DNA from: an uncultured bacterium | GTDB lineage: Bacteria; Babelota; Babeliae; Babelales; Vermiphilaceae | DNA: 64,000 bases | Reading direction: 5' to 3' | Assembly: GCA_963695335.1 (NCBI GenBank) | Contig: OY968764.1 | Span: 256,001-320,000, forward strand | Part shown: in pieces, positions 18,669 to 51,114 of the stretch | Position numbering within the stretch: the first letter of the stretch is position 1 | Layout: each line of letters starts with the position of its first letter | The notes under the pieces: generated by a model | What the model saw: only the letters and a program-made list of their open reading frames with translations | Database searches by the model: none | Told to the model about the DNA's origin: nothing | Translations under genes and position numbers: made by a program

Positions 18669-18832
18669 AACAATCTCCTTTTTTAAATAAACTTTCATAC
18701 AAAACATAGAATATTTTTTCCATCGTTGTATAGATTTGTTTCATAAGATCAGCAACTATTGGGTTTTTTGATAAAATTTGCTACGGTGTTGTGTAATCGT
18801 CAGCAATGTCGTTTTTAAAAAAGGAAATGATA

Positions 18833-20356
18833 ATGAATTATATTAAAATAATAACAGTATTGCTCTTGTGTCTTAGTCACAATATCTTCTCATCAACCTC
18901 TCCAGAAAGAAAATCAACTGAACTCCCATTTGTTATTGTCGTCTGTTCTTATAATAATGATCAATGGTCAGAAACCACACTTACATCACTTTTCACTCAA
19001 AATTATACAAATTTTCGTGTTATCATTGTTGATGACTGTTCATCAGATAATAATTGTGAAGTAATCGAACAATGCATCGATAAACATAATTTTAGTGATC
19101 GAGTTACTTTTATCAAAAATGAACAACGTCATCGGAAGTTGTTTAATTTGTATCGCGTACTTTATGAATGTAACGATAATGAAATTGTTTTAATGGTGGA
19201 TGGCGATGATTGGCTCATCGATGAAAATGTACTTTCATTTTTCAACAACATTTATGCTGATGACGGTATATGGTTTACCTATGGACAATATCGCAATGTC
19301 CCAGCTTCTCAAGCTATCCAATGGGGACACAAAGAGATGGGATATTGTCGACCTGTTCCCAAACATGTTCAACGTCAACAAGCCTACCGTTACTACAGCT
19401 TTATTTATATGCATCCACGTACCTTCCGTGCATGGTTATTCAAACTCGTGAAACTAGAAGATCTTATCGCAGATAAAATTGAAGGTTTTGAGGGGAATTT
19501 TTATCCTGCAAGCAATGATGTTGCTATGTATTTTCCCATGGTAGAAATGGCCCATACGCATATTAAATTTATCCCCGATATTCTGTATATCAGAAATCTT
19601 TACTCAGAAATTGTTGGTTTTAAAGTTGATCGTCGTCTGCAAACAACTTCTGCCCGTGAAATCAGGAAAAAAAAATGTTACCAAGTACTCTTCCAGGCTA
19701 AAAAAAACAGACTCAATTCCGTACAAAAAGCTCTCACTGACACCTTTTTACTGTGTCGTTATAATTTAACAGATATTCAAACCACGCTCACAAATCTCCA
19801 GAATAATACTACCAATCTTGGATCAATCTATGTTTTCTTCCATAACACAGAAGATAATAAAAAAATATGCCGCTTTATTAAAAAAGATTTCCCTGACGTA
19901 ATTTTTGTTCCTTATGACACAAATGGTAATAAAGCGTTAAAAAATCGACTTTTAGACTATATAAGCTTATGCAAAAATGATCATATTCTTGTGCTGACCG
20001 ACTCATGTTCTATTTTAAAACCATTAGATCTTTCTTATTACATCTTTTGGCTTGAAAAAACATATGCGTATCGTTTTTACCTGGGCAGATCTTCACTTGA
20101 TAAGGCAGCTCCATTCTACATCACTCTCAATGATGATATATGCGCATGGAAAAACCCTCCCGGCACAGACACCTGGAAGGGTTTATCAATAGGCGATGAT
20201 GCATTTATTTGTCGCAAAACAACGCTTTATAAAGAAATTAAGGATTTAAATTTCAACAATACATACGGACTTTTAAAAGGAATGATGCTTTCATCATCAC
20301 AATCAGCACGTGTTGGTTTATTTTTAAAGAATGAAACAATTAAGATTGGTGCTTAG
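18833..20356 (+). CDS. GT2-family glycosyltransferase with signal peptide
   Basis: IVVCSYN, SLFTQNY..FRVIIVDDCSSD, VDGDDWL; hydrophobic N-terminus MNYIKIITVLLLCLS. Confidence 0.88.
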   Translation: MNYIKIITVLLLCLSHNIFSSTSPERKSTELPFVIVVCSYNNDQWSETTLTSLFTQNYTNFRVIIVDDCSSDNNCEVIEQCIDKHNFSDRVTFIKNEQRHRKLFNLYRVLYECNDNEIVLMVDGDDWLIDENVLSFFNNIYADDGIWFTYGQYRNVPASQAIQWGHKEMGYCRPVPKHVQRQQAYRYYSFIYMHPRTFRAWLFKLVKLEDLIADKIEGFEGNFYPASNDVAMYFPMVEMAHTHIKFIPDILYIRNLYSEIVGFKVDRRLQTTSAREIRKKKCYQVLFQAKKNRLNSVQKALTDTFLLCRYNLTDIQTTLTNLQNNTTNLGSIYVFFHNTEDNKKICRFIKKDFPDVIFVPYDTNGNKALKNRLLDYISLCKNDHILVLTDSCSILKPLDLSYYIFWLEKTYAYRFYLGRSSLDKAAPFYITLNDDICAWKNPPGTDTWKGLSIGDDAFICRKTTLYKEIKDLNFNNTYGLLKGMMLSSSQSARVGLFLKNETIKIGA

Positions 20357-21095
20357 ACGAATTTTTTCTTTTACGCACCACTTTACGCACATATACAAGC
20401 TGAGCTATTTTATTCTTTATGCCTTTTGTCCAATTAGCATGATGCATCATAATGCCATGCGGCACTGGTAAGCGCATTCCTGGAGACCACTCATGACCTG
20501 TTAGAGTACCTCCTCCAAAAAATGTATTTGGTAAATAGCCCCACACTACGTTATAGGGATTTGTTTTGCTATGTCTTTTTATGCAACGATTTAATGAATT
20601 TTGATCACTATTTAATTTATCTTTTTGCATTGTTAATTTTACATCTTGCCACAATTGCAACGTTTTTTCATTCGCTCGGCATGCAAAAAAACCTGAACAA
20701 AGTACTCCATTTGGTGAATTTTTTTGAATCATCAAATCTTTATTTTTCATCAATTTTAAAATTGTCGCTTTAATTGGAGAAAAAAATTGAATATCAACAT
20801 CTGAAAAAATAAAAATTGAACCCCAGTTTTCCTGAATTGCACGAATAATCAAATCTACTTTGCGTATGGTTGTATCTGTCCAACCTTCATCCATAAATTT
20901 TGCCGATAGACATGTTTGTTCAGAAAATTCAAAAATAATATCAAAATCATCTTTAATAGAAGGTAAAAAGAATTGATCTTTTAACTGCTCATGAGATGGA
21001 GTATACAAAGCATATAGTTTCATTTTTTCTTGAGCTACTATATGCAAAAAACAAAAAACAAAAATAAAATTACATATCATTAAACATTTTTTCAT
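20340..21095 (-). CDS. Nucleotide-diphospho-sugar transferase (GT77-like) with signal peptide
   Basis: FSDVDIQFF DxD motif, CSGFF, DQNSLN, HHANW. Confidence 0.75.
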   Translation of the reverse strand: MKKCLMICNFIFVFCFLHIVAQEKMKLYALYTPSHEQLKDQFFLPSIKDDFDIIFEFSEQTCLSAKFMDEGWTDTTIRKVDLIIRAIQENWGSIFIFSDVDIQFFSPIKATILKLMKNKDLMIQKNSPNGVLCSGFFACRANEKTLQLWQDVKLTMQKDKLNSDQNSLNRCIKRHSKTNPYNVVWGYLPNTFFGGGTLTGHEWSPGMRLPVPHGIMMHHANWTKGIKNKIAQLVYVRKVVRKRKNSSKHQS

Positions 21096-21161
21096 TACAA
21101 CTCCTTTTTAAATAACTGTACTTTGTATTATGCTTACCACAGTTATAAAAAAAGGACACTC

Positions 21162-22091
21162 ATGAAAAATTTTTTTTTTACATTAACACTCTTTTCAATA
21201 ACGGTTTTGCATACTGCAAAGCCCACAACCAGCGCAATAACCTGGGAACCAAATGGAGGTAGATTTGGTGACAATCTCCTTTCTTATTCGCGTGCAAAGT
21301 GGCTTTCTTACAAATTCAATATCCCTGTTCTTTATCTGCCATTCAAATACTCTGATGAACTCATGATGTATGAACAAGAAGCTATGTATACACAAGAATT
21401 GGCACAACAATTTGCATATATTATCAGAATTCCAAGTCTAAAAAGATATCAGCTCCTACCAGACAACAACACTTTGTACATTAGCCATTGGTATGCAGAT
21501 GTAACCATTGATTGGTTTGATATTCCTTTTATAGAAGATCTCAAAGCAAATATTTATCCTCGTAATCCAATTGAAAAAGTGTCCATTCCTGAAAATTGTG
21601 TATCTATAGCTGCTCATGTCAGAAATGGTGGCGCATTTGCCGCTGACACACAACAAGAAAAAGATCGTTGCCCATTACGATTTGTTCCCGATGAGTTTTT
21701 TATTGATCAAATAGCTCGTATTGCCGGCATGTTCCCTGAACAAAACTTGTATGTATATATCTTTACCGATCATCAAGAACCTGCTTTATTAAAAAAAAAA
21801 TTTAAAAAGGCACTCAATAATCCACGCATTACTTTTGACTATAGAAAACAAGACAATGCTCACAATGCCAACGTTTTAGAAGACTTTTTTTCTATGATGG
21901 ATTTTGATTGTCTGATTCGTCCTGGATCACATTTTTCACGTTTTGTGCAACGTCTCGGTCGCAATAAGCTCGTTATTTATCCAGAAAGTGTTAAAAAAAT
22001 TGACGGAAAGCCTGTTATAAATGTAATTAATATAAAAAAGCGCAATAATCCCGGAGAGCGCTGGAAAACAAAAAAAGTAACTATTTTATAA
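21162..22091 (+). CDS. Fucosyltransferase-like (GT11/GT23-like) protein with signal peptide
   Basis: GRFGDNL, AAHVRNG, YIFTD, EDFFSMMDFDCLI..SHFS resemble GDP-fucose-binding motifs. Confidence 0.65.
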   Translation: MKNFFFTLTLFSITVLHTAKPTTSAITWEPNGGRFGDNLLSYSRAKWLSYKFNIPVLYLPFKYSDELMMYEQEAMYTQELAQQFAYIIRIPSLKRYQLLPDNNTLYISHWYADVTIDWFDIPFIEDLKANIYPRNPIEKVSIPENCVSIAAHVRNGGAFAADTQQEKDRCPLRFVPDEFFIDQIARIAGMFPEQNLYVYIFTDHQEPALLKKKFKKALNNPRITFDYRKQDNAHNANVLEDFFSMMDFDCLIRPGSHFSRFVQRLGRNKLVIYPESVKKIDGKPVINVINIKKRNNPGERWKTKKVTIL

Positions 22092-22772
22092 CTTCTGCAC
22101 TTCAATATTCCTTATACCATCATCACCTTGCACAATCTCAAAATAGTAGCCTGGTGCATATGTCATTACAAGCTCTTTATCATGAGATATAATCAATACA
22201 GTTATATTAAGCTCCTGAGCAAGCTTTTGGATACATTGCATTACTATATGCGCATTTTTTGGATCAAGTGCAGCTGTTGGTTCATCAAGCAAAAGTAACT
22301 TTGTGGGTTTTTGCGATGCCATAACAATAGCCAAAATCTGTTTTTGACCACCTGACAGTTCATCAATTGTTTTATTACTGTCAATGCTAAAATCTTTTAA
22401 TACAGAAAGATTTTGCGCTTCAGGTAAATCTTGCAAACCTGGATGCCGTAGCAAGTTAACACATTGCATATTCTGTAACACAGAAAATTGTGGCGCTATC
22501 ATTTCATTAATATCTTGCACTACTATGGTAACATCCTGATCTTTCATTTTTTGCCCATCAATCATAAAATCACCAGTTAATCGAGCATTGTGAGGAATAG
22601 CCCCTTGCAAAATATTAAAAAAAGTTGATTTACCCGAGCCATTTTTTCCCTGTAAAAAGTTAAGTTTACCAGGCAAACAATGTAATGAGACATCTTTAAA
22701 AAATAAGTTCTGTTGTGGAGAGAAAGCAAAACTCATATGTTGAACACGCAAACCTTTTATTGTTTCTGACAT
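22086..22772 (-). CDS. ABC transporter ATP-binding subunit
   Basis: GKNGSGKST, LSGGQKQ, LLLLDEPTAALDP, ISHD. Confidence 0.95.
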   Translation of the reverse strand: MSETIKGLRVQHMSFAFSPQQNLFFKDVSLHCLPGKLNFLQGKNGSGKSTFFNILQGAIPHNARLTGDFMIDGQKMKDQDVTIVVQDINEMIAPQFSVLQNMQCVNLLRHPGLQDLPEAQNLSVLKDFSIDSNKTIDELSGGQKQILAIVMASQKPTKLLLLDEPTAALDPKNAHIVMQCIQKLAQELNITVLIISHDKELVMTYAPGYYFEIVQGDDGIRNIEVQKL

Positions 22773-22774
22773 AG

Positions 22775-23662
22775 TTATACCCCCAAATGATCAATATGTT
22801 TTTTAGTTTGTTTGCGGTATGTCAACACCAAAATACATAACGTCACAAGCGCTTGTACGGTTGTAAAATATTTTAAATTAAACCCAACTTTTAAAAGTAA
22901 TTGCTGTAATGCAAAATATGCACAACAACCAACTAAAGGCATTGCTATAACAATAGGATGTTTTGATCGCACAATAACTTTTCCAAGAATAAGAGATGTA
23001 ATACATAAAAGCGCTTTTCCAAAACCCATGGTGATATCAGCAAAACCATTCGATTGCGCAAATAAATAACCACTTAACCCTGCAAGTGCATTACTCAACA
23101 CAACTCCTGTAATAAAAACATAGGGAACAGAAATACCATAATGTCTTAAAAAATGAGAATTGTTACCATACAAAGCAAATGCATAACCAAGTTGTTTTTT
23201 GAATAGTATATATAGCCCAACACTAACAATAATTGCAATAAACATGAGCGTCACCATTTCTGGATGACGCTCTATTACATTATATATCAAAGGATTTTGA
23301 TATACACTTAATGATATGTAACTACCTGCTATTAATTGATTAACACCATAAAAAACACCAAACGTAATAATGCTCGAAAGTAAATGTGGCAACCCTGCAT
23401 ATTGCGTTAACATACTTGATGTAATTCCCACTATTGCACCGCCAAACAAACTTGCAATAACAACAATTGGTAACTGCATACTCACCGGTAATGCATCAGT
23501 GCATGCAATAGCATACGCACCTATAATTGCACCAGAAACATACGCACTTTCTATACTCAAATCAGGTAATTTCATTAATGAAATAGTGATATATGCTCCA
23601 AGAAGTAAAGGCACATGCATTAAACATTGTTCCATTACAATCAATAACATATCTACATTCAT
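22775..23662 (-). CDS. ABC transporter permease (TrpY-like)
   Basis: LPDLSIE, LLSSII, LSNALAGLSGYLFAQ..GFADITMGFG. Confidence 0.9.
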   Translation of the reverse strand: MNVDMLLIVMEQCLMHVPLLLGAYITISLMKLPDLSIESAYVSGAIIGAYAIACTDALPVSMQLPIVVIASLFGGAIVGITSSMLTQYAGLPHLLSSIITFGVFYGVNQLIAGSYISLSVYQNPLIYNVIERHPEMVTLMFIAIIVSVGLYILFKKQLGYAFALYGNNSHFLRHYGISVPYVFITGVVLSNALAGLSGYLFAQSNGFADITMGFGKALLCITSLILGKVIVRSKHPIVIAMPLVGCCAYFALQQLLLKVGFNLKYFTTVQALVTLCILVLTYRKQTKKHIDHLGV

Positions 23663-24660
23663 ATAATAATAACTCCCTCTTTTTGCAATTGAGCTAATCT
23701 TTCTTTACTCAGATGTAAACCTTGTTGCTCCATCGTTTTTGTATTTATCTTCAGATATAGCTTTTCTAACGGAAGTACGGCAATAGAAGCTGGTGATTCT
23801 TTATCCTCAAGAATACGATGGGCTAACTGAGCACCCAAAACACCATAATCAGCTTGCTGTACTCCAAATGATAATGCTGCTCCTTTATCTCCTGAATTAA
23901 GCTCAGATGTAAATAGTGTCACTCCATAACGCCCACATAATAAAATTAAACTATCAACACCCGCAACCGTTGTATGATCTGTTAAAATCATTAATACATC
24001 AACATCAGTTAAAAAGTGTGGCACTTTTTGCGCTATTTCATTTTGATGCGCAACAGTAACGATACGTAAGCTAATATTTTTTTCTTTCAAAATTTTCTCA
24101 AGTTTTCCAGATTTTTTCTCCAAATGTCCTTGCGCAGGATTATATACTAACAATACTGTTTTTATATTCGGTTTTATATGTAAAAGAGCATGTATTTGTT
24201 GCTCATAATCATCTTCATCATTAGTACCTGTTACCATACCTCCTGGATGAGCAAGTGACGCAATAATCCCCATCGCCACAGGATTATCAACCGCAGTAAA
24301 AACTTGTGGCGTTTTTGATTGTCTTTTTTGAGACAGTTCAAAAATAGATTGCGAACATTGTGCACCAATAGTAAATACTAAATCATAATTATGTTGCACT
24401 ATTTCATCCGCTTGCGCACGGAGTAACGTGGCATTACCATTGGCATTATATTCATCAAATGAATATTTTTTATCACTCCCACTATGTATAGTGTCTTTAA
24501 ATCCATTCATAATATCTGTCATTGATGGATGCACCGCTGGTGCAAATAAAGCAATGCGATAATCACTCAATGCTGAACGGTTTCGTTGCAATACAATTTC
24601 TGCACCTATCAACACAACTAAACATACAGCAACAGCAATACATATCTGTTTTTTATTCAT
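23659..24660 (-). CDS. ABC transporter substrate-binding protein (TrpX/aromatic amino acid-type)
   Basis: HPSM..I..GF, NANGN, P.VFTAVDNPV..GII.SL.HPGG.VTG, TDHT, L.IN. Confidence 0.85.
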   Translation of the reverse strand: MNKKQICIAVAVCLVVLIGAEIVLQRNRSALSDYRIALFAPAVHPSMTDIMNGFKDTIHSGSDKKYSFDEYNANGNATLLRAQADEIVQHNYDLVFTIGAQCSQSIFELSQKRQSKTPQVFTAVDNPVAMGIIASLAHPGGMVTGTNDEDDYEQQIHALLHIKPNIKTVLLVYNPAQGHLEKKSGKLEKILKEKNISLRIVTVAHQNEIAQKVPHFLTDVDVLMILTDHTTVAGVDSLILLCGRYGVTLFTSELNSGDKGAALSFGVQQADYGVLGAQLAHRILEDKESPASIAVLPLEKLYLKINTKTMEQQGLHLSKERLAQLQKEGVIII

Positions 24661-25876
24661 AATATTCCCTTGAATACATAGTTACACAAAAATTTTTCAA
24701 AAAATTGACCATAATGTTTTTTCCTTGAATTAAATCAACAATTGGCAAAGATTCATTAGTTTCATGAAGAGCGCTTTGAGTAGTAAACGGAGTAAAACCA
24801 ACTCCATCCAAACCTAACGCTCTGTAGTATCTTAAATCAGTTGATCCTTCAAAAAAGAGTGGTTGCGGCTGCATACCATAGTTATGCACTGTTTGTGCAA
24901 GCACATTATACAATGGTGTACAATAATCATCACCCATTTCATAATCAGGCACAGTAGCATGAATTATATAGCTACTATTTGTATACCCACGCAGTATATC
25001 TTCAATAAAATGTATTATTTTATTCATCTTCATTGTTGGAGGAACACGTATATCAATAGTAGCCGACGCCTTTTCTGGCACTATATTTAATGATGTTTTG
25101 TTATTACTAATCACACCTGCTGTTACTGATGTAATATTCATAGAAAGTAACAAACCATCAGCCTGAGTAATACTTTTTTGCTGTTGCATAGCGTGATGCT
25201 TTACCAATGTATGCAAAATAGTTGTTAACTCGTGAATTGCATTAAAGCAGTTAAGTTTAGAGCCATGAGCAAGAGATCCCTTTGTTATAATCTCTATCTG
25301 TATTGGCTTACGTTCAGAAACTTTAATTGCAATGGTATTTGATTGCCCTGAAGAAACTCCTTCATCAAGGACAAATTGCGCATTCATATGTGCAAAACAA
25401 TCTGTTTGTATAAACTGCCGTGTCCCAGTAAATCCACCAACCTCTTCATCAGGCACTACGACAAAATGAATTGTATGTCGTGGCTGCACACCAGCATCTT
25501 TAAGCGCTTTTAATGCAAAATAGCATGCAACTCCTACCCCTTTCATATCTTGCACACCACGACCAATAATAACATCATCAACTATAGCGCCTTCAAAAGG
25601 ACCCGCTAACCATTCCTTTTCATTTAATGCAGGAACAACATCCATATGATGATTAAGTATCAATGATGGTAATAAAAGATCTTTTCCCTCATACGTAACA
25701 ACAATAACCGGATGACCAGAAGGAAGCATAACTTTTTGATATTTAAAACCATCTTGTTCCGCTTGCACCTGAAAGAGTGAGCAAACAGATTCATAATCAG
25801 GATTTGGTTGAGCAGTATTAATCCTCAAATATCGCTGTAAAAATGAAATCATATCCCTTTCCATATGATTTTTCAT
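24653..25876 (-). CDS. M20 aminoacylase (ACY1-like N-acyl-L-amino acid amidohydrolase)
   Basis: YLRINTAQPNPDY, LNHHMDVVP, GRGVQDMK, VPDEEVGG, LDEG, HGS, TDLRYYR, GFTPF, LHETNE. Confidence 0.88.
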   Translation of the reverse strand: MKNHMERDMISFLQRYLRINTAQPNPDYESVCSLFQVQAEQDGFKYQKVMLPSGHPVIVVTYEGKDLLLPSLILNHHMDVVPALNEKEWLAGPFEGAIVDDVIIGRGVQDMKGVGVACYFALKALKDAGVQPRHTIHFVVVPDEEVGGFTGTRQFIQTDCFAHMNAQFVLDEGVSSGQSNTIAIKVSERKPIQIEIITKGSLAHGSKLNCFNAIHELTTILHTLVKHHAMQQQKSITQADGLLLSMNITSVTAGVISNNKTSLNIVPEKASATIDIRVPPTMKMNKIIHFIEDILRGYTNSSYIIHATVPDYEMGDDYCTPLYNVLAQTVHNYGMQPQPLFFEGSTDLRYYRALGLDGVGFTPFTTQSALHETNESLPIVDLIQGKNIMVNFLKNFCVTMYSREYYE

Positions 25877-26661
25877 TTCTTAATGAATGAAAACAGTAAC
25901 ACATTACCGTATCCTGGAATTGATTGATCATCTGGTAATGGCTTACATTCACTGTCTTCTGGATCAAAAGTAGGCATAAATGCTTGATAACGACTGTGAT
26001 ACAGATCAATGTCTTCGTTACAGTTACATTCAATAGCAACTTGTTGGGCAAACGCTCTAAACGCGCGTATAATTGATGGAGTTCGATCTATTCCATCAGA
26101 TGTTTCACCTGAATTTGCTTTGGTAAGTCCGTACAATAGTACAATGTTGTGCGCCTTTTTAGTTTGCACAGCTTTTATAACATCATCTTTTATGTCTTCA
26201 AGTGTATGTCGAATAAGACGAGAATTTATCCCCTGATGCCGATAATGTGGGACTGTATAATCACCACCAAAATAGATACTGACACTATCCTTAAAAGTAA
26301 ACGATGGCATCATACTATTTTTATCATGACAACGTATTTCATTCTGAGTAATATCATCGTATTCATTTTCATCATTAATAATGAAAAGCTTTTTAAAAGC
26401 AATTATTCCATCCGATCCTTCTTTTGTAACACAATACAATCTGTTTTTAACAATATCACCCTCAAGAGCTCCTTGTCTAAACTTTTTAGGCAAAATAACT
26501 ATTTTGGTACTATCATTGATAGCCTGCTCATCAATCACCTTCAGCAAAGAGTTGACATCAGATTGAGTAGCTTTTTTATATATCAAAGCTGGTTCCATAG
26601 CAACAGTTGTGATACATACTAAGGGTAAAAAACAATTGATTACATACGTAATTAATTTCAT
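25873..26661 (-). CDS. Secreted GNAT-like (putative acyltransferase) protein
   Basis: Signal ending TTVA|MEPA; IYKKATQSDV N-terminal GNAT-like pattern; YTVPHYRHQGINSRLI resembles acetyl-CoA motif A. Confidence 0.6.
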   Translation of the reverse strand: MKLITYVINCFLPLVCITTVAMEPALIYKKATQSDVNSLLKVIDEQAINDSTKIVILPKKFRQGALEGDIVKNRLYCVTKEGSDGIIAFKKLFIINDENEYDDITQNEIRCHDKNSMMPSFTFKDSVSIYFGGDYTVPHYRHQGINSRLIRHTLEDIKDDVIKAVQTKKAHNIVLLYGLTKANSGETSDGIDRTPSIIRAFRAFAQQVAIECNCNEDIDLYHSRYQAFMPTFDPEDSECKPLPDDQSIPGYGNVLLFSFIKK

Positions 26662-26778
26662 ATAAAATCCTTGTAAAAAAATTAAATTAAACACATTGCC
26701 AATAGCAAGAGACCATCGGCATATCTTGAAATTATTAAATGGAAATAGAGAGAAAATGTAATTAAAGGAAAAAAAAGA

Positions 26779-26886
26779 TTAGCGCCACCAGCGCCAAGAA
26801 AGAAGAAGAGTTTGCGTGCAAGATTTTGTTTGAATCATACAGTTCAATGACATGCTTTGTGCAGTAGTCATAGAAAAAGAAATCAT
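26779..26886 (-). CDS. Tryptophan-rich leader peptide (TrpL-like)
   Basis: MISFSMTTAQSMSLNCMIQTKSCTQTLLLSWRWWR*; TGG CGC TGG TGG CGC TAA; GGGA 6 nt before ATG; alternative in-frame ATGs at 26898, 26871, 26853 and 26838. Confidence 0.8.
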   Translation of the reverse strand: MISFSMTTAQSMSLNCMIQTKSCTQTLLLSWRWWR

Positions 26887-26935
26887 ATGAAATCCCATAA
26901 TTAAGGGGGTTGAACAAAATACCTTACTAATAATA

Positions 26936-26964
26936 ACAATACTGTAGGTTATTCACCTTGTCAA
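26936..26964 (-). promoter_or_regulatory. Sigma70-type promoter of the leader/GNAT/aminoacylase/ABC operon
   Basis: TTGACA-17 bp-TATTGT. Confidence 0.55.
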
Positions 26965-26993: not shown

Positions 26994-27659
26994 TCAGCGA
27001 TTGCGGGCTAGAAAGAGTGCATTGCCAAAAAAAGATTGTATAGTATCAGCAAAATCGCGTCCAACAAGGTCAAATCTATGCTCTGCCATCCAAGCAACCA
27101 CATCTTCATATAACGGCTGTCCCTCATAACTTTCTATAAAAGATACCTCCGCCAACACTACCTTGATATTGTGAATCATTTGGGGTGCTGCCTGCAAAAT
27201 GGTAAGTTCATGACCTTGTGTGTCAAGCCAAAGCAAATCGATCATCTTAACTCCATTTTCATCCGCCCATTGATCAAGTGTGATGGTATGCACAGTTGCC
27301 ATCCGAGGAAAAATTATTGGAGACCGGGATAAACGTTCTTTTGGTTTATGCAAAGACCCTGCTTGAGAAGCAATGCCAGGCTTAGTTGGTTTTTCTGAAA
27401 TATAAAACTCAGCAGTTCCGGTGTGATCGCTTAACGCCACTGGATACCTGTGAACATTGGGCAACATACTTGTATTTTTCACGAGTCGATCAAAAATTTC
27501 TGGCACCGGCTCAAAAGCATGAACTGTACATTGCGGCCATTGTGATACCATTTTTTTTGTATCATGACCATCAAAAGCTCCTGCTTCTACAATCACCGGA
27601 TTGTCAGGTAAAAATTGCTGTATTACTTCTATGGTTTTATAGGAATTGAATATAATCAT
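26994..27659 (-). CDS. FkbM-family methyltransferase
   Basis: VEAGAFDG, HAFEP, ITLD, IDLLWLDTQGHEL, EVSF..YEGQ. Confidence 0.9.
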   Translation of the reverse strand: MIIFNSYKTIEVIQQFLPDNPVIVEAGAFDGHDTKKMVSQWPQCTVHAFEPVPEIFDRLVKNTSMLPNVHRYPVALSDHTGTAEFYISEKPTKPGIASQAGSLHKPKERLSRSPIIFPRMATVHTITLDQWADENGVKMIDLLWLDTQGHELTILQAAPQMIHNIKVVLAEVSFIESYEGQPLYEDVVAWMAEHRFDLVGRDFADTIQSFFGNALFLARNR

Positions 27660-43805: not shown

Positions 43806-44055
43806 TGGTTTACTACATGGTATAAGAAGAAAAAAGAGAAATAAGCTGCCGAAGAAGTATTTTGAAGAATATGAAATGAGTTAGACTGAAATAAGAAGCC
43901 AATTTTCATATCCTTATTTCAATTTTGAGGCTTATATTGAAATAAGAACAACTTTTTCAATATTTTGGAAAAGAAACATTATTATGTTATTGTATAAAAT
44001 ACAATTTTAAAAAATAATAAGACTTATCTTCAAAAATCAAAAACTCTTGCGCCTT

Positions 44056-45183
44056 ATGCATTTTATCACACAAAATTTTCATCTTATTAATATTTCACCA
44101 CTTTTTCTCATCACCCTCTCGTTTATTATTGGGATTATTTTTCATACACTCCTTATGCCATTATCAATACTTTGTGCAACACTTCTCTGTTTCGTTCCTT
44201 TTTTACAACAACATGCATTCTTCAAACAACTTATACTTTGTTCTTTTTTTATATACGCTGGAGCATGTTTGCATCACAAAGAACTACGTGATTATGATAA
44301 TTTTTACACATTATTTGAGAACAAAAAAATTACCATCACCGGAACGGTTATTGATAAAAATGAAGTGATATCACAGTACAAAAAATTAGACGCTATTACT
44401 GTTGCAATTAATACTATTGCAACAGACCAATTCGCTCAAACAAGCAACAAAACAATGATTTTTTACACAAAAAGCAACACTTCCATCTTTGTGGGCGATA
44501 CAGTCGCATTTTACGACATACTATGCAAACGACCTTCTAGTAATGATTTTCAACGCTATCAGATCAAAGAACAGGTTGTTGCAACAATTTTTGACGATGC
44601 ACCAAAATACAATATAAATCATCACCCAACATGGTCGTTGCGCAACTGGATATGGAAACAAAAAAAGAGACTTTTAGACAGTTTAAAAAATAAGTTTTCT
44701 GATACCTGTTTTCGTTTTTTTACATCACTTTTTTTGGGTAATCGCGCTTGTGTTAAAAATTCACTTGAAGCTACAAATGAACAGTTTAAAATTTGGGGAA
44801 TTTCACACTTTCTTGCACGTTCAGGATTGCATTTGGCACTTTTTCTTCTGATCTGGCACACTATTTTTTGTTTTATTCCCATTCCACTCACAAGCAAACA
44901 ACTCATTGTCACATTACTCAGCTGTACTTATTTTATATTAACGTGGACATCTGCCCCATTCACACGATCATTTGCCCTTTTTATGATTGGTAAATTATGC
45001 TTATTCACCAAAACATCATTTCACTTGCTCCACTATGTAACGCTCGTTTGTTTGTGTTTTTTATTATACTGCCCTCTTTATCTTTTTTTCCTCGATTTTC
45101 AACTCAGTTTTATATTAACTTTTGCACTCGCTTGGTTTAACCAATTATCAGCTCAATACCGCCCACAACAATCAAAATATTGA
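44056..45183 (+). CDS. comEC: ComEC/Rec2 competence channel protein
   Basis: N-terminal TM and OB-like region, SLFLG, F..WGISHFLARSGLH, PFTRS, FQLSF. Confidence 0.85.
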   Translation: MHFITQNFHLINISPLFLITLSFIIGIIFHTLLMPLSILCATLLCFVPFLQQHAFFKQLILCSFFIYAGACLHHKELRDYDNFYTLFENKKITITGTVIDKNEVISQYKKLDAITVAINTIATDQFAQTSNKTMIFYTKSNTSIFVGDTVAFYDILCKRPSSNDFQRYQIKEQVVATIFDDAPKYNINHHPTWSLRNWIWKQKKRLLDSLKNKFSDTCFRFFTSLFLGNRACVKNSLEATNEQFKIWGISHFLARSGLHLALFLLIWHTIFCFIPIPLTSKQLIVTLLSCTYFILTWTSAPFTRSFALFMIGKLCLFTKTSFHLLHYVTLVCLCFLLYCPLYLFFLDFQLSFILTFALAWFNQLSAQYRPQQSKY

Positions 45184-45252
45184 TTATTACCACCCTTTTT
45201 GCCTAGCATAAGAACATGTTGGCTCGCATAAAACCAAAAAAGGAGACGCGCA

Positions 45253-46758
45253 ATGTTAAAGTTTATTTCTCGATTATGTAACAAAAAAATACATAATCTC
45301 ATTCTCATCAGTTTATATTTTACGTTAGGAACAAACAGCACAAAAGCGCGTAATACATCATATGACATGCAAAATGAAGCTTCTTGTGAAATGTGCTACT
45401 GTGACTTTTGTAATGAAATCCGCAAAGAAAGCTCAATTAAAACATGCAAAGAAAACTGTACAAAAAAAGCAAAACAGCAACATAACGACAAACATAAAGA
45501 AAATAAAAATATTCCAACCAAGCGCGTCATGATGATATACATGGCAGCGGATAATGATTTACGACCCTTTGCTGCGCGCAACATTCAACAAATGGCAAAC
45601 ATTGGTTCAAATCAAAATATCACCATTGTTGTTCATTTGGATATTCGCATATCAGGCAACAAAAAAATAACACGTCGTTACTTAATTGAAAAAGACCAAG
45701 TGTTGCACATTGACCCTTATAACCCTCTTACGCAACAAATGGATAGCGGAAACCCTGCAACACTCATTTCTTTCTGCGAATGGGCTATTAGAAACTATCC
45801 CGCAGAAGAATATGATCTTATCCTTTGGAATCATGGCACTGGAATTCTTGAACCACCTCATGGAAAAATTATAAACCCTATGGATCTGTTTGTATTCAAT
45901 CCAGCAACTCGTCTTTTTGATCTTGATAGATCAGTTGGTTTTATGGATATTATTGATCACACAGATCAACAATATCGTGGCGTCTGTTGGGATGATTCAA
46001 CAGGAAACTATTTATCTAACAGAAAAATGGAAATTGCCTTACAAACAATATGTCAAAATTATCTTGGTGGTAAAAAGTTTGGCATAATTGGTTTTGATGC
46101 ATGTCTTATGTCGATGATAGAAGTGAGTAGTTTTATTAAAAAATATGCGCACGTAATGGTCAGCTCTGAAGAAGTTGAACTTGGAATGGGATGGAAATAT
46201 GATGAAGTACTTTTCCCATTTCTTAATAATAAATTAGACACCTTCTCTTTTGCTCGTCATATTGTTGCAGCATATGAAAGAACATATCAAACAATCACTA
46301 ATGATTACACCCTGTCTGCAATAAATCTTGATTTTATTAACATGCTTGAACAAAATGTTGATCAAGTTGCAAAAATGCTTATAGAAGGTCTTGATAAACA
46401 AAAAGTTGTGTTTGGGTCCATCATAAAAGAAAGTAAAAACAAACTACTTTGCACACACTTTGATGAACCAACATATATTGATCTTCATCATTTTTATAAA
46501 AATCTTACAACCAATCTGAAAAAGATAGCCGCCACCAACAGCTCACTGCTTAAAAACAATCTCCTTACTAAATTGAACGAAGGCATGCAATTAATCGAAG
46601 AGCTAGTAATTGCAAATGCTACGGGTAAAAACTTAAAAAACGCTCAAGGAATTGCAATATATTTCCCTGAACGTGGCATTCATAATTCATATCAAGAAGC
46701 TGTATTCTTGGCATCTAATGCATGGGGAAGCTTACTCATGCGCTATCTTTTTGGCTAA
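45253..46758 (+). CDS. Clostripain-family (C11) cysteine peptidase
   Basis: MIYMAADNDL, LWNHGTG (catalytic His), GFDACLMS (catalytic Cys), SEE, TLSA, GIAIYFP. Confidence 0.9.
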   Translation: MLKFISRLCNKKIHNLILISLYFTLGTNSTKARNTSYDMQNEASCEMCYCDFCNEIRKESSIKTCKENCTKKAKQQHNDKHKENKNIPTKRVMMIYMAADNDLRPFAARNIQQMANIGSNQNITIVVHLDIRISGNKKITRRYLIEKDQVLHIDPYNPLTQQMDSGNPATLISFCEWAIRNYPAEEYDLILWNHGTGILEPPHGKIINPMDLFVFNPATRLFDLDRSVGFMDIIDHTDQQYRGVCWDDSTGNYLSNRKMEIALQTICQNYLGGKKFGIIGFDACLMSMIEVSSFIKKYAHVMVSSEEVELGMGWKYDEVLFPFLNNKLDTFSFARHIVAAYERTYQTITNDYTLSAINLDFINMLEQNVDQVAKMLIEGLDKQKVVFGSIIKESKNKLLCTHFDEPTYIDLHHFYKNLTTNLKKIAATNSSLLKNNLLTKLNEGMQLIEELVIANATGKNLKNAQGIAIYFPERGIHNSYQEAVFLASNAWGSLLMRYLFG

Positions 46759-46823
46759 AAACAATACAGTGCATTGCTTAGTATATTTTGCATATATTAA
46801 GCAATGCACTATTATTAAAAATT

Positions 46824-47396
46824 ATGAATCAAAAAGAAACAAAAAGAGTTTTATTAGAAACATTATACGAGCCATATAAAAAGTGCATGTCATGCCCTCT
46901 TGCAACCCTCGGCAGACAAACCGTTGTCTTTGGAGAAGGCAACCCTGACGCTCAATTTATGATTATCGGAGAAGCACCTGGGCAAAAAGAAGACGAACAA
47001 GGAAGGCCCTTCGTTGGAAGATCTGGCAAGCTCCTGACAAATATATTGACCTCTCTCGGCATAGATAGAAAAGAAATATTCATCACCAACATTGTTAAAT
47101 GTCGCCCTCCTCAAAACCGCAAACCAACTGCACTAGAAAGCAAAACATGCAAAGATATTCTGCTTATTAATCAGATCAATATCATCAAACCAAAAGTCAT
47201 ATGTACCCTTGGATCATCTGCCATAGAAGCTCTCCTTGGAAAACCAATTAAAATGGGTGAAATTCATGGCCAACAGCTTATTTTTGGCGCAAGCATCATC
47301 ATTCCAACCTATCATCCAGCCTATGTTCTGAGAAATCAAAAACTGACAGCTAACTTTAAACATGATATACAAACATCCTATTCTCTTTGTAAATAG
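46824..47396 (+). CDS. udg: Uracil-DNA glycosylase family 4
   Basis: C..C.L, GEG, IGEAPG..ED..GRPFVG.SG, NIVKCRPP.NR.P, TYHPA. Confidence 0.95.
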   Translation: MNQKETKRVLLETLYEPYKKCMSCPLATLGRQTVVFGEGNPDAQFMIIGEAPGQKEDEQGRPFVGRSGKLLTNILTSLGIDRKEIFITNIVKCRPPQNRKPTALESKTCKDILLINQINIIKPKVICTLGSSAIEALLGKPIKMGEIHGQQLIFGASIIIPTYHPAYVLRNQKLTANFKHDIQTSYSLCK

Positions 47397-47455
47397 TTGA
47401 ATAAAAACATTTATGTTGCTAAACAGTGTAAAAATACACCAAGAAAACCTCAGGG

Positions 47456-47786
47456 GTGGTGCATAAGTGGTTGATAAGTGGTGCATAAGTGGTTGATAAG
47501 TGGTGCATAACTTTTTTTGCACTATATTTTTTTACACTCAAATACAGTGATCAGATAGCCATATCCAGAGTTATCATACACAGAAATCCTCACCTAGTCA
47601 TTGTTTTTAGAGTTATCCACCAGTTATGCACCACTTATCAACCACTTATGCACCACCCATTTTAAAAAAATTATATCGACCAGATCGCTCTTTTAGAAGA
47701 AAAAATGGCAAGTTATGCACCACTCACCCCTTCGCCTATTATTATTATATATATATATATTTAATTATAAGATAATAATAACAGGC
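47456..47786. other. Probable chromosomal replication origin (oriC)
   Basis: Five 11-bp units on the minus strand (47456-47510), four on the plus strand (47613-47656) and one more (47713-47723), TTATGCACC/TTATCAACC/TTATCCACC; then gcc-(tat)4-(at)6 AT-rich tract; G/C skew reverses here. Confidence 0.8.
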
Positions 47787-47985
47787 ACCCCTTGCATTTG
47801 TTTTTATTAAAAATCAAAAAAACCAGTTTGCCATTCCTTAAAAACAAGGGAATTACTGTTTTCTATTGCCAGAAAAAAATAATTATAATAAGCTTTGATA
47901 ATAAGCTTTGATAGAATCTTATCAAAAAACGATCTTTTTGGTCGTTGTAAAATTAATTAATATCATCATCACTTTGAGGTTGCTT

Positions 47986-49047
47986 GTGAAACTTGTTGAC
48001 GTAATAGACGAATTAGTTGAAGAGCGTGGATTAAAAAAAGAGTCGTTGGGCGCGATAGTATGCGAAGGTATGCTTGCAGCTTATCAGCGGAAATATCCAG
48101 ATTTAATCCTTAAGGCAGAAGAAGATCCGGTTACGGGTGATCTTGTTGTGCTCGTTCAAAAAACAGTTGTTGCGTCTGTTGAAGATGATTACAATCAAAT
48201 CAGTTTAAAAAAAGCTCGCAATATTAACAAAGACGCTGCTCTAGATGATGTCATCTGGCTTCCTTTTGAGGGAACGATTGGTCGAGTGGAAGTTTTAAGA
48301 GCTCGTCAAGTTATTGCAACTCGCATCAAACAAGTTGAAGCTCAAATTGTTTATGATCAGTTTAAAGATAAACGTGGCCAAATCATTGTTGGCACTATCC
48401 ATAAAGCCGAACGTAACGGAGTATCTGTTAAGTTTGGCGATGTTTATGCATTCTTGCCATATTCTCTCTCTATTCCTGGTGAAAGATTTGCTGTTGGATA
48501 TACCGTTAAAGCATTGTTAAAAGAAGTGTTGCTAGAGCCACAGGGTGATAGCCAGCTTGTTTTAGATCGTGTTTCGCCAGAATTTTTAGAAGCTTTATTT
48601 GCTTTAGAAATTCCAGAAGTCTTTGAGAAGTTAGTTGAAATTAAAAAAATAGTTCGCTCTCCTGGTTATAAATCAAAAGTTGCTGTTTTTTCACACGATA
48701 GAAACATCGATCCTGTTGGTACATGTGTTGGTGTTGGTGGTAGTCGTATAAAGCCTATATTAAAAGAGCTTGGCGGCGAAACAATAGATGTTTTTTTATG
48801 GAGCGACGTTTTACCGTTGTTTGTGAAAAATTCTTTAAAGCCAGCTGTTATTGACCGAGTAGAAATAAGTGCTGACAATACAATTGCTCGTGTTTGGCTT
48901 GCTGAAGACCAAAGACCGTTTGCTATTGGAAAAAGTGGGCAAAATATATCATTAGCTTCTCAAATTACTGGAGTTACTATTCAGTTGATTCGTGAAGATG
49001 GAGAAAAAAAAGAAGAAAGTTCTAATCAAGTGTTAACTGATGATTAA
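47986..49047 (+). CDS. nusA: Transcription termination/antitermination factor NusA
   Basis: E.PEV, RSPGYKSKVAV, DPVGTCVGVGGSRI, AIGKSGQNI; GTG start behind GAGG. Confidence 0.96.
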   Translation: MKLVDVIDELVEERGLKKESLGAIVCEGMLAAYQRKYPDLILKAEEDPVTGDLVVLVQKTVVASVEDDYNQISLKKARNINKDAALDDVIWLPFEGTIGRVEVLRARQVIATRIKQVEAQIVYDQFKDKRGQIIVGTIHKAERNGVSVKFGDVYAFLPYSLSIPGERFAVGYTVKALLKEVLLEPQGDSQLVLDRVSPEFLEALFALEIPEVFEKLVEIKKIVRSPGYKSKVAVFSHDRNIDPVGTCVGVGGSRIKPILKELGGETIDVFLWSDVLPLFVKNSLKPAVIDRVEISADNTIARVWLAEDQRPFAIGKSGQNISLASQITGVTIQLIREDGEKKEESSNQVLTDD

Positions 49048-49080
49048 TTTTAGAAAAAAAGAGATAGTTAATTTTTTATT

Positions 49081-51114
49081 ATGCGAATATATGAATTTGC
49101 TCAATTACATAATATTTCAAGCAAAGATCTTGTAGAAAAATTGCAAAAGCAGGGCTTTGATGTAAAAAGCCATATGTCTCTTTTGGATGAAAAAGCACTT
49201 TCTTTTTTGAATAAATCATTTACAAATGCTGATAAAAATGAGCACAAAAATGAACCGTTAAAAGAACCAAAATCTCCTAGTACGATTGAAAAGCCAGTGT
49301 TACAAACTTCACCAGTAAAAGCTCAAAAATCTTTAAAAACTTCTAAAGACAAAAAACAGCAATTTGTTTCTGACAAAAAAGAACATCTTGTAAAAGAGCA
49401 GCAAAAAGAAGTTCCTGTTGAGTTGGTTGTTCGTCAAATGAGTGTATTGGATCTTGCTGATAAAATAAAAAAACCTGTCACTGATATTATTATTACGTTG
49501 CTTAAATGGGGAGTTATGGCAACGAAGAATCAAATTATCCCCGAATCAATGGTTCAGCGACTCGCTGAGCATTATGAAGTTTCTATCATTAAAGCTACTG
49601 ACAAACAAGAAAAAGCAGAAATACGTAGACAATCAACAACTGGCACAGCTCTCGAAAAAAGAGAACCGGTCGTTGTTGTAGTTGGTCACGTTGATCATGG
49701 AAAAACAACGTTGCTTGATTATATCAGAAAAACCCGTGTTGCCTTTAAAGAAAAGGGCGGAATAACACAGCATTTGGGTGCGTATGAAGCAACAACTCCC
49801 CATGGAAATATTGTTTTTTTAGATACTCCTGGCCACGAAGCGTTTGTTAAGATTAGACAACGTGGCATACGTGTTGCAGATATTGTTATTTTGATTGTTG
49901 CAGCTGATGATGGTGTTATGCCTCAAACCGTTGAAGCAATTAAATATGCTCTTTCTTCAAAAGCACCAATCGTTGTTGCGATAAACAAAGTTGATAAAGT
50001 TGATGCAGCTCGCCTTGATGTTGTTAAAAGACAACTCAATCAACATGGTATTACCGTAGAAGATTGGGGCGGAGACGTTATCTGTGTTCCAATTTCAGCA
50101 AAAACAGGTCAAGGTGTTGATCGTTTGCTTGAAATGTTAAGCTTACAAGCTGAAATGATGGAGTTACGAGCAGAAATTAATGTTCCAGCGAGTGGATATA
50201 TTTTAGAATCAAGCATAGAAATAGGGCGTGGTTCTGTTGCGACAGTTATTGCGCAAAATGGAATTTTAAAAGTTGGTGATTACATGTTGTGCGGAAATAC
50301 AACAGGTCACATTAGTTCATTATTCGATTCACATGGCAAACGCGTCAAAGAAGTGCATCCATCGATTCCAGCTCAAGCAGCAGGTTTTGACGGTCGACCA
50401 GAGGCTGGAGATTTTTTTAGAGTTGTATCAAAAGAAGAATATTTAAAAGCACGTTCTACGGGCGGCGAAGCTAAAGTATCTCTTGCTGGTAAACGTTTGA
50501 TGCATGAAAAAGGCATTAATCTTATTGTTAAAGCTGATAATCATTCATCCCTTGAAGCGGTTGTAGAAGAGATTGATCGACTTTCTAAAAAAGTACAAAA
50601 AGGTTTTAATATTTTACGTCAAGATGTTGGTAATATTAATGAGAGTGATGTTGAATTTGCATTCAATTCAGGAGCTCGCATTGTTTGCTTTAATATAAAA
50701 GCTGAATCAAACGCTCAAGAGCTTGCTGATCGTAAAAAAGTAACAATTTTACATTATGGTATTATTTATAAACTTCTTGAAGCTTTACATGCAATTGCTG
50801 AATCAGAAAAAGATATAGAAATGGTTCGCACCAAGATTGGTGAGGCTACCGTTTTACGTGTGTTTGATATTAAAAAAGTTGGTGTTATTGCTGGTGCAGT
50901 TGTGCGCGATGGTAGATTTACTCGCGAAGGTATTCTTGTTATTTGGCGAGGGAAAACAAAAGTTGGAGAAGGTAAAATTTCAAGCTTACAACGTGATAAA
51001 AAATCAGTGAAAGAAGTGCAGACTGGTTTTGAATGTGCATTCATGGTGCATAATTTTGTTGATTGGCAAGAAGATGACCGCGTGGAATGCTTTATTGATA
51101 TTCCAAAAAAATAA
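49081..51114 (+). CDS. infB: Translation initiation factor IF-2
   Basis: [45 protein letters not shown]. Confidence 0.98.

Follow-up and report, generated by a model that had tools for sequence, protein, structure and literature searches.

Dependentiae, most of which have not been cultured, are widespread parasites of protists, and little is known about how they acquire amino acids. Here we describe a five-gene operon in a window of 64,000 nucleotides from a 1.37-Mb single-contig Dependentiae-type genome (G000:C1:256001-320000; G labels denote genomes and L labels loci or contigs, G000 being the source genome and C1 its contig). In our judgment the operon probably serves tryptophan acquisition: it would be induced by tryptophan starvation and would combine an importer core with an accessory pair of enzymes, one acylating outside the cytoplasm and the other deacylating, in a parasite that does not synthesize tryptophan.

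The five open reading frames (ORFs) lie on the minus strand at 22086-26661 of the window. Neighbors overlap by 4, 8 and 4 nt, and the last two are separated by a 2-nt gap, in agreement with an earlier reading of this DNA made from the letters alone (the sequence-only reading). Gene 1 (25873..26661) codes for GNATL, a protein of 262 residues that belongs to an unnamed family and has a GNAT fold according to AF2, Foldseek and VIA-align. Alignment with 20 homologs places its start at the ATG at 26661 (MKLITY...) and not at the open GTG at 26694. Gene 2 (24653..25876) codes for an ACY1-like M20 amidohydrolase of 407 residues (PF01546 and PF07687; TIGR01880). The remaining genes code for an ATP-binding cassette (ABC) importer: gene 3 (23659..24660) for a TrpX-like substrate-binding protein of 333 residues with a hydrophobic N-terminus (PF04392), gene 4 (22775..23662) for a permease of 295 residues (PF02653) and gene 5 (22086..22772) for an ATPase of 228 residues (PF00005).

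Relatives of gene 1 come from metagenome-assembled genomes (MAGs) of candidate division TM6 or Candidatus Babeliales, which bears out the Dependentiae-type origin suspected earlier. We did not find trpA in G000 (the control recovered it in 14 of 14 genomes). The genome encodes two TLC-type ATP/ADP translocases, and a close pair of secretin genes, whose open frames span 866 and 854 residues, lies just past the end of the window, at G000:C1:320016-325269. With trpA not found and with two translocases and two secretins, G000 has the profile of an energy parasite that lives inside host cells and possesses an outer membrane.

A tryptophan leader ahead of the operon

Upstream of gene 1 there is a leader ORF (26779..26898, minus strand) of 39 codons if counted from the ATG at 26898, or 35 if counted from the ATG at 26886, which ends in SWRWWR-TAA. 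Its end reads TCT TGG CGC TGG TGG CGC TAA, with the tryptophan codons at 26796-26794, 26790-26788 and 26787-26785 and the stop codon at 26781-26779. A pattern match (26769..26797, minus strand) revealed a terminator-like hairpin, TTGGCGCTGGTGGCGCTAA, followed by the T-run TCTTTTTTTT. The stem of this hairpin (26797..26779) encloses both the tryptophan codons and the stop codon of the leader. A second hairpin of 10 pairs (26697..26721, minus strand) follows the terminator and precedes the ribosome-binding site of gene 1. The leader is preceded by a promoter-like site, TTGACA-17 nt-TATTGT (26936..26964, minus strand; 10 of 12 consensus matches), recognized by its consensus match only, in a region that is no richer in such sites than shuffled sequences.

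The leader recurs in relatives. We considered a locus leader-positive if an upstream ORF contained at least two TGG codons among its last eight. By this definition 30 of 48 related loci, counted as independent (which overstates their independence, because some, e.g. L047, L048 and L053, are close kin), are leader-positive, compared with 10.0% of 1032 regions upstream of long ORFs in G000. At least three TGG codons in the last eight, as at this operon, are found upstream of 1.55% of the G000 long ORFs. Among the genome loci 12 of 14 are leader-positive (G010 has one such tryptophan codon, G003 has none); the figures are 8 of 15 for the metagenome loci, 7 of 14 for loci added from a phylum-wide sample, and 3 of 5 for loci where ABC genes or M20 occur without gene 1. 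For the metagenome loci at least 150 nt of upstream sequence were required, by which four shorter loci were dropped; five others of this set end in a single tryptophan codon (RWR, SSWRC or SCWP before the stop). Several leader ORFs are preceded by a Shine-Dalgarno-like sequence at proper spacing. The hairpin arms vary by lineage and yet still pair (TTGGCGC/GCGCTAA, TTGGGC/GCCCAA, TGGCC/GGCCA, TGGC/GCCA), and a T-run follows 36 of 39 related leaders as opposed to 118 of 400 control ORF ends. One further measure, whether the last TGG falls in the 5' arm, turned out to be uninformative (16 of 39 leaders, 232 of 400 controls).

The composition of the encoded proteins points in the same direction as the leader. 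There is a single tryptophan in the 1525 residues of the five operon proteins, located in M20, compared with 0.94% tryptophan in 854 long ORFs (binomial P 8.6e-6), and the operons of relatives are similarly tryptophan-poor. No Rfam family, T-box or other, reached the gathering score anywhere in the window. A loose scan of G000 for a second tryptophan leader returned 56 short frames with at least two terminal TGG codons and a T-run; by eye, only the frame of this operon combines a hairpin with an immediate T-run, and no second leader was accepted.

Control of the operon by tryptophan is therefore well supported by sequence and conservation, and the tryptophan leader suspected by the sequence-only reading is real. 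When tryptophan is short, a ribosome waiting at the leader tryptophan codons would block the hairpin, and transcription would enter the operon. When tryptophan is sufficient, the ribosome would complete the leader and transcription would terminate. We infer this ribosome-masking attenuation from the anatomy of the leader and its conservation; a single-hairpin mode of attenuation is possible. In attenuators of the E. coli trpL type, codons for the regulated amino acid cluster in a short ORF, and a hairpin with a U-run comes after it. The G000 leader shares with them the ORF with clustered tryptophan codons, the hairpin and the T-run. However, it controls uptake and accessory genes instead of biosynthesis, and both its tryptophan codons and its stop lie inside a single terminator hairpin, with no antiterminator pairing found.

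The proteins encoded by the operon

GNATL has no Pfam or NCBIfam match at E <= 0.01. No Pfam domain is found in any of the 53 clusters that its family forms in the 90% collection, and the family has 261 cluster representatives at E <= 0.001 in the 50% collection; a profile search of the family against PDB sequences gave no matches at E <= 10. The AF2 model, based on 21 sequences, has a predicted local distance difference test (pLDDT) score of 89.4 and a predicted template modeling (pTM) score of 0.82. With this model, Foldseek detected at least 366 PDB matches at E <= 0.001, and all among the matches listed are GNAT acetyltransferases. VIA-align, run against 48,161 chains, ranked EctA best (Z 14.0, root-mean-square deviation 3.1 over 157 residues) and gave 196 chains at Z >= 8. 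The fold matches listed are small-molecule, amino-acid and N-terminal acetyltransferases, and the look-alikes in the ESM Atlas are GNAT clusters only. Structure prediction, Foldseek and VIA-align thus agree, and at the level of the model they confirm the GNAT fold that the sequence-only reading had guessed from the segment TVPHYRHQGINSRL. In GNAT proteins motif A, Q/R-x-x-G-x-G/A, is found at the start of helix alpha3, and the segment of gene 1 occupies the corresponding position, where strand 4 ends and helix 3 begins.

The N-terminus of GNATL consists of MK, about 19 uncharged residues and (T/I/A)-x-A, followed by M-E. This segment is kept in position, not in sequence, and the model shows it as a helix that is detached and of low confidence. 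Of 169 GNATL relatives of at least 240 residues, 139 carry an uncharged, hydrophobic run at the N-terminus. In these 139 the N-terminal flank is more positive than the C-terminal flank in 116 cases, the reverse is true in 8, and 15 are ties. The KD15 values are 2.27 for GNATL and 3.19 for the binding protein, compared with 0.05 for M20 and 0.27 for the ATPase. Since the hydrophobic run and its positive flank are conserved in relatives, GNATL is likely exported, as its signal-peptide-like start had suggested. Two other possible signs of export were discarded. In a lipobox the residues before the cysteine are usually G, A or S; those before the conserved N-terminal cysteine of gene 1 are mostly bulky (V, I, L), so we rejected the lipoprotein reading. 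A disulfide between the two conserved cysteines is unusable as a sign, because several relatives keep only one of them. The family almost entirely avoids tryptophan: 148 of the 169 relatives have none, as is the case for gene 1, and all of them together contain 28 in 48,060 residues.

Gene 2 matches PF01546 (105.1 bits) and PF07687 (42.5 bits) above the cut-offs. The best of its 54 NCBIfam matches is TIGR01880, the ACY1 type (251 bits, under the cut-off of 338.6), and the best solved relative is human ACY1, 1Q7L (122.6 bits over residues 6-193). The HxD, D, EE and E positions are identical to those of 1Q7L chain A, in a solved fragment that excludes the last His. Gene 2 has no hydrophobic N-terminus, so that its identification as an ACY1-type M20 enzyme without a signal peptide held up. 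Unlike eukaryotic ACY1, it is bacterial and operon-encoded, and its relatives often carry a membrane segment. Such an N-terminal segment is present in 53 of 116 Dependentiae M20 relatives, and the charge balance of these 53 indicates a cytoplasmic N-terminus with the enzyme outside in 41, the reverse in 5 and a tie in 7. Tryptophan occurs once in 95 of the 116 and twice in the other 21. A close M20 relative, P0303 (45% identity), is labeled Parachlamydiaceae, an amoeba-symbiont lineage, amid otherwise Dependentiae matches; genes exchanged among symbionts that live together, or mis-binning, may account for it.

The importer is of the type that carries aromatic amino acids, as had been proposed. 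Gene 3 matches PF04392 with 154.3 bits (cut-off 25.9), and its best NCBIfam match is NF041285, TrpX, at 141.5 bits, far under the cut-off of 390. Two published papers allow its pocket to be compared with those of known binders. Bradshaw et al. describe two specificity positions in PF04392 proteins: the tryptophan binder SP1069 has Gln (Gln-284), and tyrosine or phenylalanine binders have Tyr (PMC6816091). Alignments to 3LKV and 3LFT put Glu253 and Gln269 of gene 3 at these positions, Gln269 coinciding with the Gln of SP1069. In 19 of 21 aligned operon-type proteins this position is Q or E, G087 having Asn and G185 Ser. For S. suis TrpX, the ligand contacts given in the second paper are T108, A127, T129, D152 and N233 (PMC9382623). 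The corresponding residues in gene 3 are A, A, D, D and H, that is, Thr108 is replaced by Ala, Thr129 by Asp and Asn233 by His. Of 17 binding proteins linked to GNATL or M20, 15 have Ala, Ser or Val at the position of Thr108, and 9 have an acidic residue at that of Asp152. By contrast, the 4 ABC-only proteins all have Thr at the first position, as do both orphans, and an acidic residue at the second. The contrast comes from a small sample of related proteins and is a lead only.

Overall, the operon importer resembles streptococcal TrpXYZ (S. suis TrpX; S. pneumoniae SP1069, PDB 3LFT) in its PF04392 binding protein, its permease and ATPase types and the Gln that admits indole (PMC6816091). Expression of TrpXYZ is raised by transcription attenuation when tryptophan is short, under T-box control (PMC9382623). 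The sensor in G000 differs from this T-box, being a leader peptide with tryptophan codons and no Rfam match. In addition, the G000 operon contains two more enzymes, three of the five ligand contacts differ, and the NF041285 score is far below the cut-off.

A second PF04392 gene of G000 (G000:C1:414726-415733, read as 415733..414726; L039:1483-2490) lies outside the window, with no adjacent permease or ATPase and no leader. This orphan keeps all five TrpX contacts (T, A, T, D, N) and has Asp and Tyr at the specificity positions, where it resembles the tyrosine binder CD0873; both orphan paralogs have Tyr. The orphan binding protein may share the operon permease and ATPase. Among the 61 relatives searched, G054 stands apart with 32 PF04392 matches, many of them in tandem, compared with 0-3 in the other 60.

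Linkage across Dependentiae and competing explanations

GNATL is present in 12 of 61 near relatives and 43 of 261 Dependentiae genomes, nearly always as the first gene after the leader. The synteny survey revealed several gene orders, and the expected linkage of the genes in relatives was borne out. The order GNATL-M20-binding protein-permease-ATPase is shared by G000, G016, G156, G237, G213, L058 and G216, and the order GNATL-binding protein-M20-permease-ATPase by G008, G010, G018, G087, G185 and L048. In G180 the binding protein comes first (binding protein-GNATL-M20-permease-ATPase), and G047 has binding protein-M20-permease-ATPase. GNATL and M20 occur as a pair alone at thirteen loci, GNATL alone in G003 and G009, and the leader with the ABC genes alone in G007 and G001. 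Finally, G005 and G002 have a leader, a 50-residue GNATL remnant and the ABC genes.

G005 and G002 belong to the same genus, and their locus occupies the same position, downstream of an FkbM-type gene. In both (L073 of G005, L074 of G002) an ORF of about 90 codons retains the first ~50 residues of GNATL, comprising the signal segment and the start of the domain. The remnant is a deletion scar: most of GNATL and the whole of M20 were removed. The ABC system that remains is 68-82% identical to that of G000. In G005, G002, G007 and G001 neither an intact GNATL nor M20 was detected, despite the tryptophan leader and the ABC importer. This contradicts the sequence-only reading in so far as it took the five genes for an obligatory pathway.

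M20, in turn, depends on GNATL. It is present in 32 of the 261 genomes, and all 32 have GNATL. Its N-terminus follows the importer. At 15 loci with ABC genes in the operon M20 has no hydrophobic N-terminus (that of G047 was judged by ORF length only), and at 13 loci whose fetched flank contains no ABC gene it carries a 20-residue membrane-type segment. There are two exceptions: in G258 the segment is present and the ABC genes are convergent on the other strand, and in G070 the segment is absent and there are no ABC genes in 6.8 kb. L041, L054, L050 and L051, where the contig ends at or in M20, and L056, where M20 has 186 residues, were dropped from this count. G012 and G024, which are 97% and 95% complete, have no PF04392 gene. 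Decay is visible at some of the loci. In L056 (8903-9463) M20 is reduced to the 186-residue fragment, situated between the binding-protein and permease genes, and in G088 (C1:1099099-1101829) M20 is in two pieces and GNATL is broken (pieces 7-130 and 241-282). L091 (G245:C28) and G147:C27 contain tandem GNATL copies with no adjacent M20.

Because G005, G002, G007 and G001 have the leader and the ABC genes without either enzyme, the importer needs no conjugate and most likely carries free tryptophan at least. It is best read as a tryptophan uptake system induced by tryptophan starvation, an analog of TrpXYZ with a different sensor, in which the TrpX-like ABC importer would take up tryptophan. 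As to the enzyme pair, the activities of GNATL and M20 are complementary by class, amine N-acylation and N-acyl-L-amino-acid hydrolysis. The idea that M20 acts on the GNATL product gains support from the finding of M20 only alongside GNATL and from an M20 N-terminus that differs according to whether there is an importer. Most simply, an N-acyl amino acid, probably N-acyl-tryptophan, would be formed outside the cytoplasm and hydrolyzed after import or at the membrane. Exported GNATL would N-acylate tryptophan, or a substrate bearing it, outside the bacterial cytoplasm. M20 would free the tryptophan again, in the cytoplasm if there is an importer in the operon, and on the outward side of the membrane if there is none. 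The data show the gene content, the folds, the tryptophan-linked signals and the co-occurrence; export, acyl donor, acceptor and importer cargo are the steps that we infer here. The sequence of acylation, import and deacylation proposed earlier is thus sustained by the restriction of M20 to GNATL genomes and by the M20 N-terminus, and is weakened by the leader and ABC genes that stand alone and by GNATL without M20.

How far GNATL reaches may also be considered. GNATL may plausibly be secreted into the host, given the secretins and the signal-like N-termini of neighboring glycosyltransferase-like genes; since G003 and G009 carry GNATL without M20, GNATL should have some benefit on its own. In an extended form of the proposal, which we regard as possible without favoring it, the exported tryptophan-free GNAT would tag host tryptophan or Trp-tRNA with a host acyl group and so create a private pool of N-acyl-tryptophan. 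This pool would be retrieved either by the remodeled TrpX-type importer together with a cytoplasmic deacylase, or by an outward-facing membrane-anchored deacylase where there is no importer. Nutrient piracy of this kind would have no described counterpart, a claim that belongs to the extended form and is just as tentative.

Several observations weigh against the favored explanation of the operon. At the leader, 18 of the 48 loci do not have two terminal tryptophan codons (about 10 have one, and in eight none was seen). Neither the minimum-free-energy nor the centroid fold of the leader contains an antiterminator pairing, the fold is not stabler than shuffles (z -1.37), and local hairpin energies match those of controls (median -9.0 vs -8.9 kcal/mol). 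Sequence alone does not explain how a single hairpin would terminate transcription when tryptophan is plentiful. In GNATL, motif A is imperfect (R-H-Q-G-I-N); its Arg and Asn show conservation of 90% or more, but in many relatives K, Q, R or E takes the place of the central Gly. No Pfam GNAT model reached the cut-off, the best E-value being 0.062 (Acetyltransf_7, 7 of 21 members). The case for export is built on heuristics, and KD15 is at least 2.0 in 29% of the G000 long ORFs. As for linkage, eleven genomes have a GNATL match without M20, seven of these matches being distant (E 1e-15 to 1e-27). G003 and G009 have an intact GNATL, and M20 was not found in them at E <= 1e-20. Three contigs (L045, L052, L057) have GNATL-binding protein-permease-ATPase without M20.

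We considered four other explanations. The first keeps all five genes as a strict, obligatory pathway, in which exported GNATL acylates free host tryptophan using acyl-CoA from the host, the ABC importer serves the conjugate alone, and cytoplasmic M20 releases the amino acid. This is consistent with a GNATL that looks exported and an M20 that looks cytoplasmic, and with the occurrence of M20 only alongside GNATL. The deviation of the GNATL/M20-linked binding proteins from the stand-alone ones at the TrpX contact positions (PMC9382623) also fits, and the secretins and neighboring signal-bearing glycosyltransferases hint at secretion of enzymes that require cytosolic cosubstrates. Nevertheless, we consider it unlikely. 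The leader and a closely similar ABC system persist without either enzyme in G005 and G002, and likewise in G007 and G001; GNATL persists without M20 in G003 and G009; membrane-segment forms of M20 occur in genomes without any PF04392 gene; and the G000 binding protein retains an acidic residue at the Asp152 equivalent.

GNATL might instead be a host-directed effector that is secreted when tryptophan is short and acetylates a host macromolecule, for example Trp-tRNA or protein N-termini, so that the host uses less tryptophan or turns over more, with M20 salvaging the by-product. GNAT toxins of the TacT/AtaT type acetylate aminoacyl-tRNA. The solitary GNATL of G009, under a tryptophan leader, would fit a benefit without the deacylase. 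The nearest folds include the N-terminal acetyltransferases NatA, Ard1, Naa60 and RimI, and M20 is closest to a eukaryotic enzyme that recycles N-acetyl-amino acids. However, none of the 50 fold matches listed points specifically to toxins that acetylate tRNA, the data give no sign of secretion into the host, and the move of M20 to the membrane where there is no importer is explained no better than by the acylation and deacylation of tryptophan that we favor. We rate an effector role as quite unlikely.

That GNATL and M20 are co-regulated passengers, with roles unrelated to each other or to tryptophan uptake, is suggested by the variety of module combinations (ABC alone, GNATL alone, GNATL with ABC, GNATL with M20). 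It is made very unlikely by the presence of GNATL in all 32 M20 genomes, by the GNATL-M20 adjacency that survives several gene orders, by the near-complete avoidance of tryptophan in the GNATL family and by an M20 N-terminus that tracks the importer at 28 of 30 loci.

The last alternative is modeled on the B. subtilis yxe (scm) operon, which encodes the ABC importer YxeMNO, the GNAT protein YxeL, the monooxygenase YxeK and the M20 deacetylase YxeP (PMC9706529). The yxe genes serve amino-acid salvage with a cytoplasmic GNAT: acetylation comes first, then breakdown of the cysteine adduct, and deacetylation last (PMC9706529). Import of a tryptophan derivative, followed by N-acetylation inside, conversion and deacetylation by M20, with a GNATL N-terminus that is no export signal, would match the combination of ABC importer, GNAT and M20 in yxe, but it is highly improbable, since a gene for the middle step is in none of the loci examined, the N-terminal segment of GNATL is position-conserved and resembles an N-in signal in 116 of 139 relatives, and the charge balance of the M20 membrane forms suggests that they face outward (41 of 53).

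Relation to described systems and genomic surroundings

The yxe operon also shows that the sequence-only reading went too far in stating that no system with this layout was described. Like yxe, the G000 operon joins an ABC importer, a GNAT-type protein and an M20 enzyme. Unlike yxe, the G000 operon has a GNATL with an export-type N-terminus, no middle enzyme and tryptophan control. For Dependentiae, we found neither such a system nor a tryptophan leader described in the literature, supplements being outside the search. The favored reading has a forerunner in concept. In Meister's gamma-glutamyl cycle idea an amino acid is conjugated outside, the conjugate is imported and the amino acid is released inside. 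The enzymes and the conjugating group differ, and the likeness is one of concept only.

The operon is thus a variation on known types of system, with a real chance of a new principle. A clear, conserved tryptophan-sensing leader is now seen in the phylum Dependentiae. An unnamed, almost tryptophan-free GNAT-fold family with an export-type N-terminus has been defined, with its 261 representatives and its presence in 43 of 261 genomes. It is accompanied by an ACY1-like deacylase that depends on this family and whose membrane topology signal changes with the presence of the importer. If the pair indeed acylates tryptophan outside and deacylates it on retrieval, this would be a new principle of competing with the host for a scarce amino acid. 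Even otherwise, the leader illustrates compactly how an attenuator can have its regulatory codons inside the terminator.

Among the genes around the operon, an FkbM-type methyltransferase (26994..27659) was considered as a pathway member and excluded, because its synteny extends only to the closest relatives (G005, G002, L041) and it lies upstream of the promoter and the leader. On the other side, three operon neighbors (18806-22091) have signal-like hydrophobic N-termini: a GT2 gene (18806..20356), a PF03407 Nucleotid_trans gene (20340..21095) and a gene without a Pfam family (21123..22091). Two of these three are sugar-nucleotide transferases. Exported enzymes that require cytosolic cosubstrates may, judging by these predicted signals, be a theme in this organism.

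The window contains no tRNA genes. Its GC skew flips near 48,000 (window 44000-50000): all 2-kb bins are negative before this point and positive after it, and the cumulative minimum is at 46-48 kb. Replication origins and termini show this pattern.

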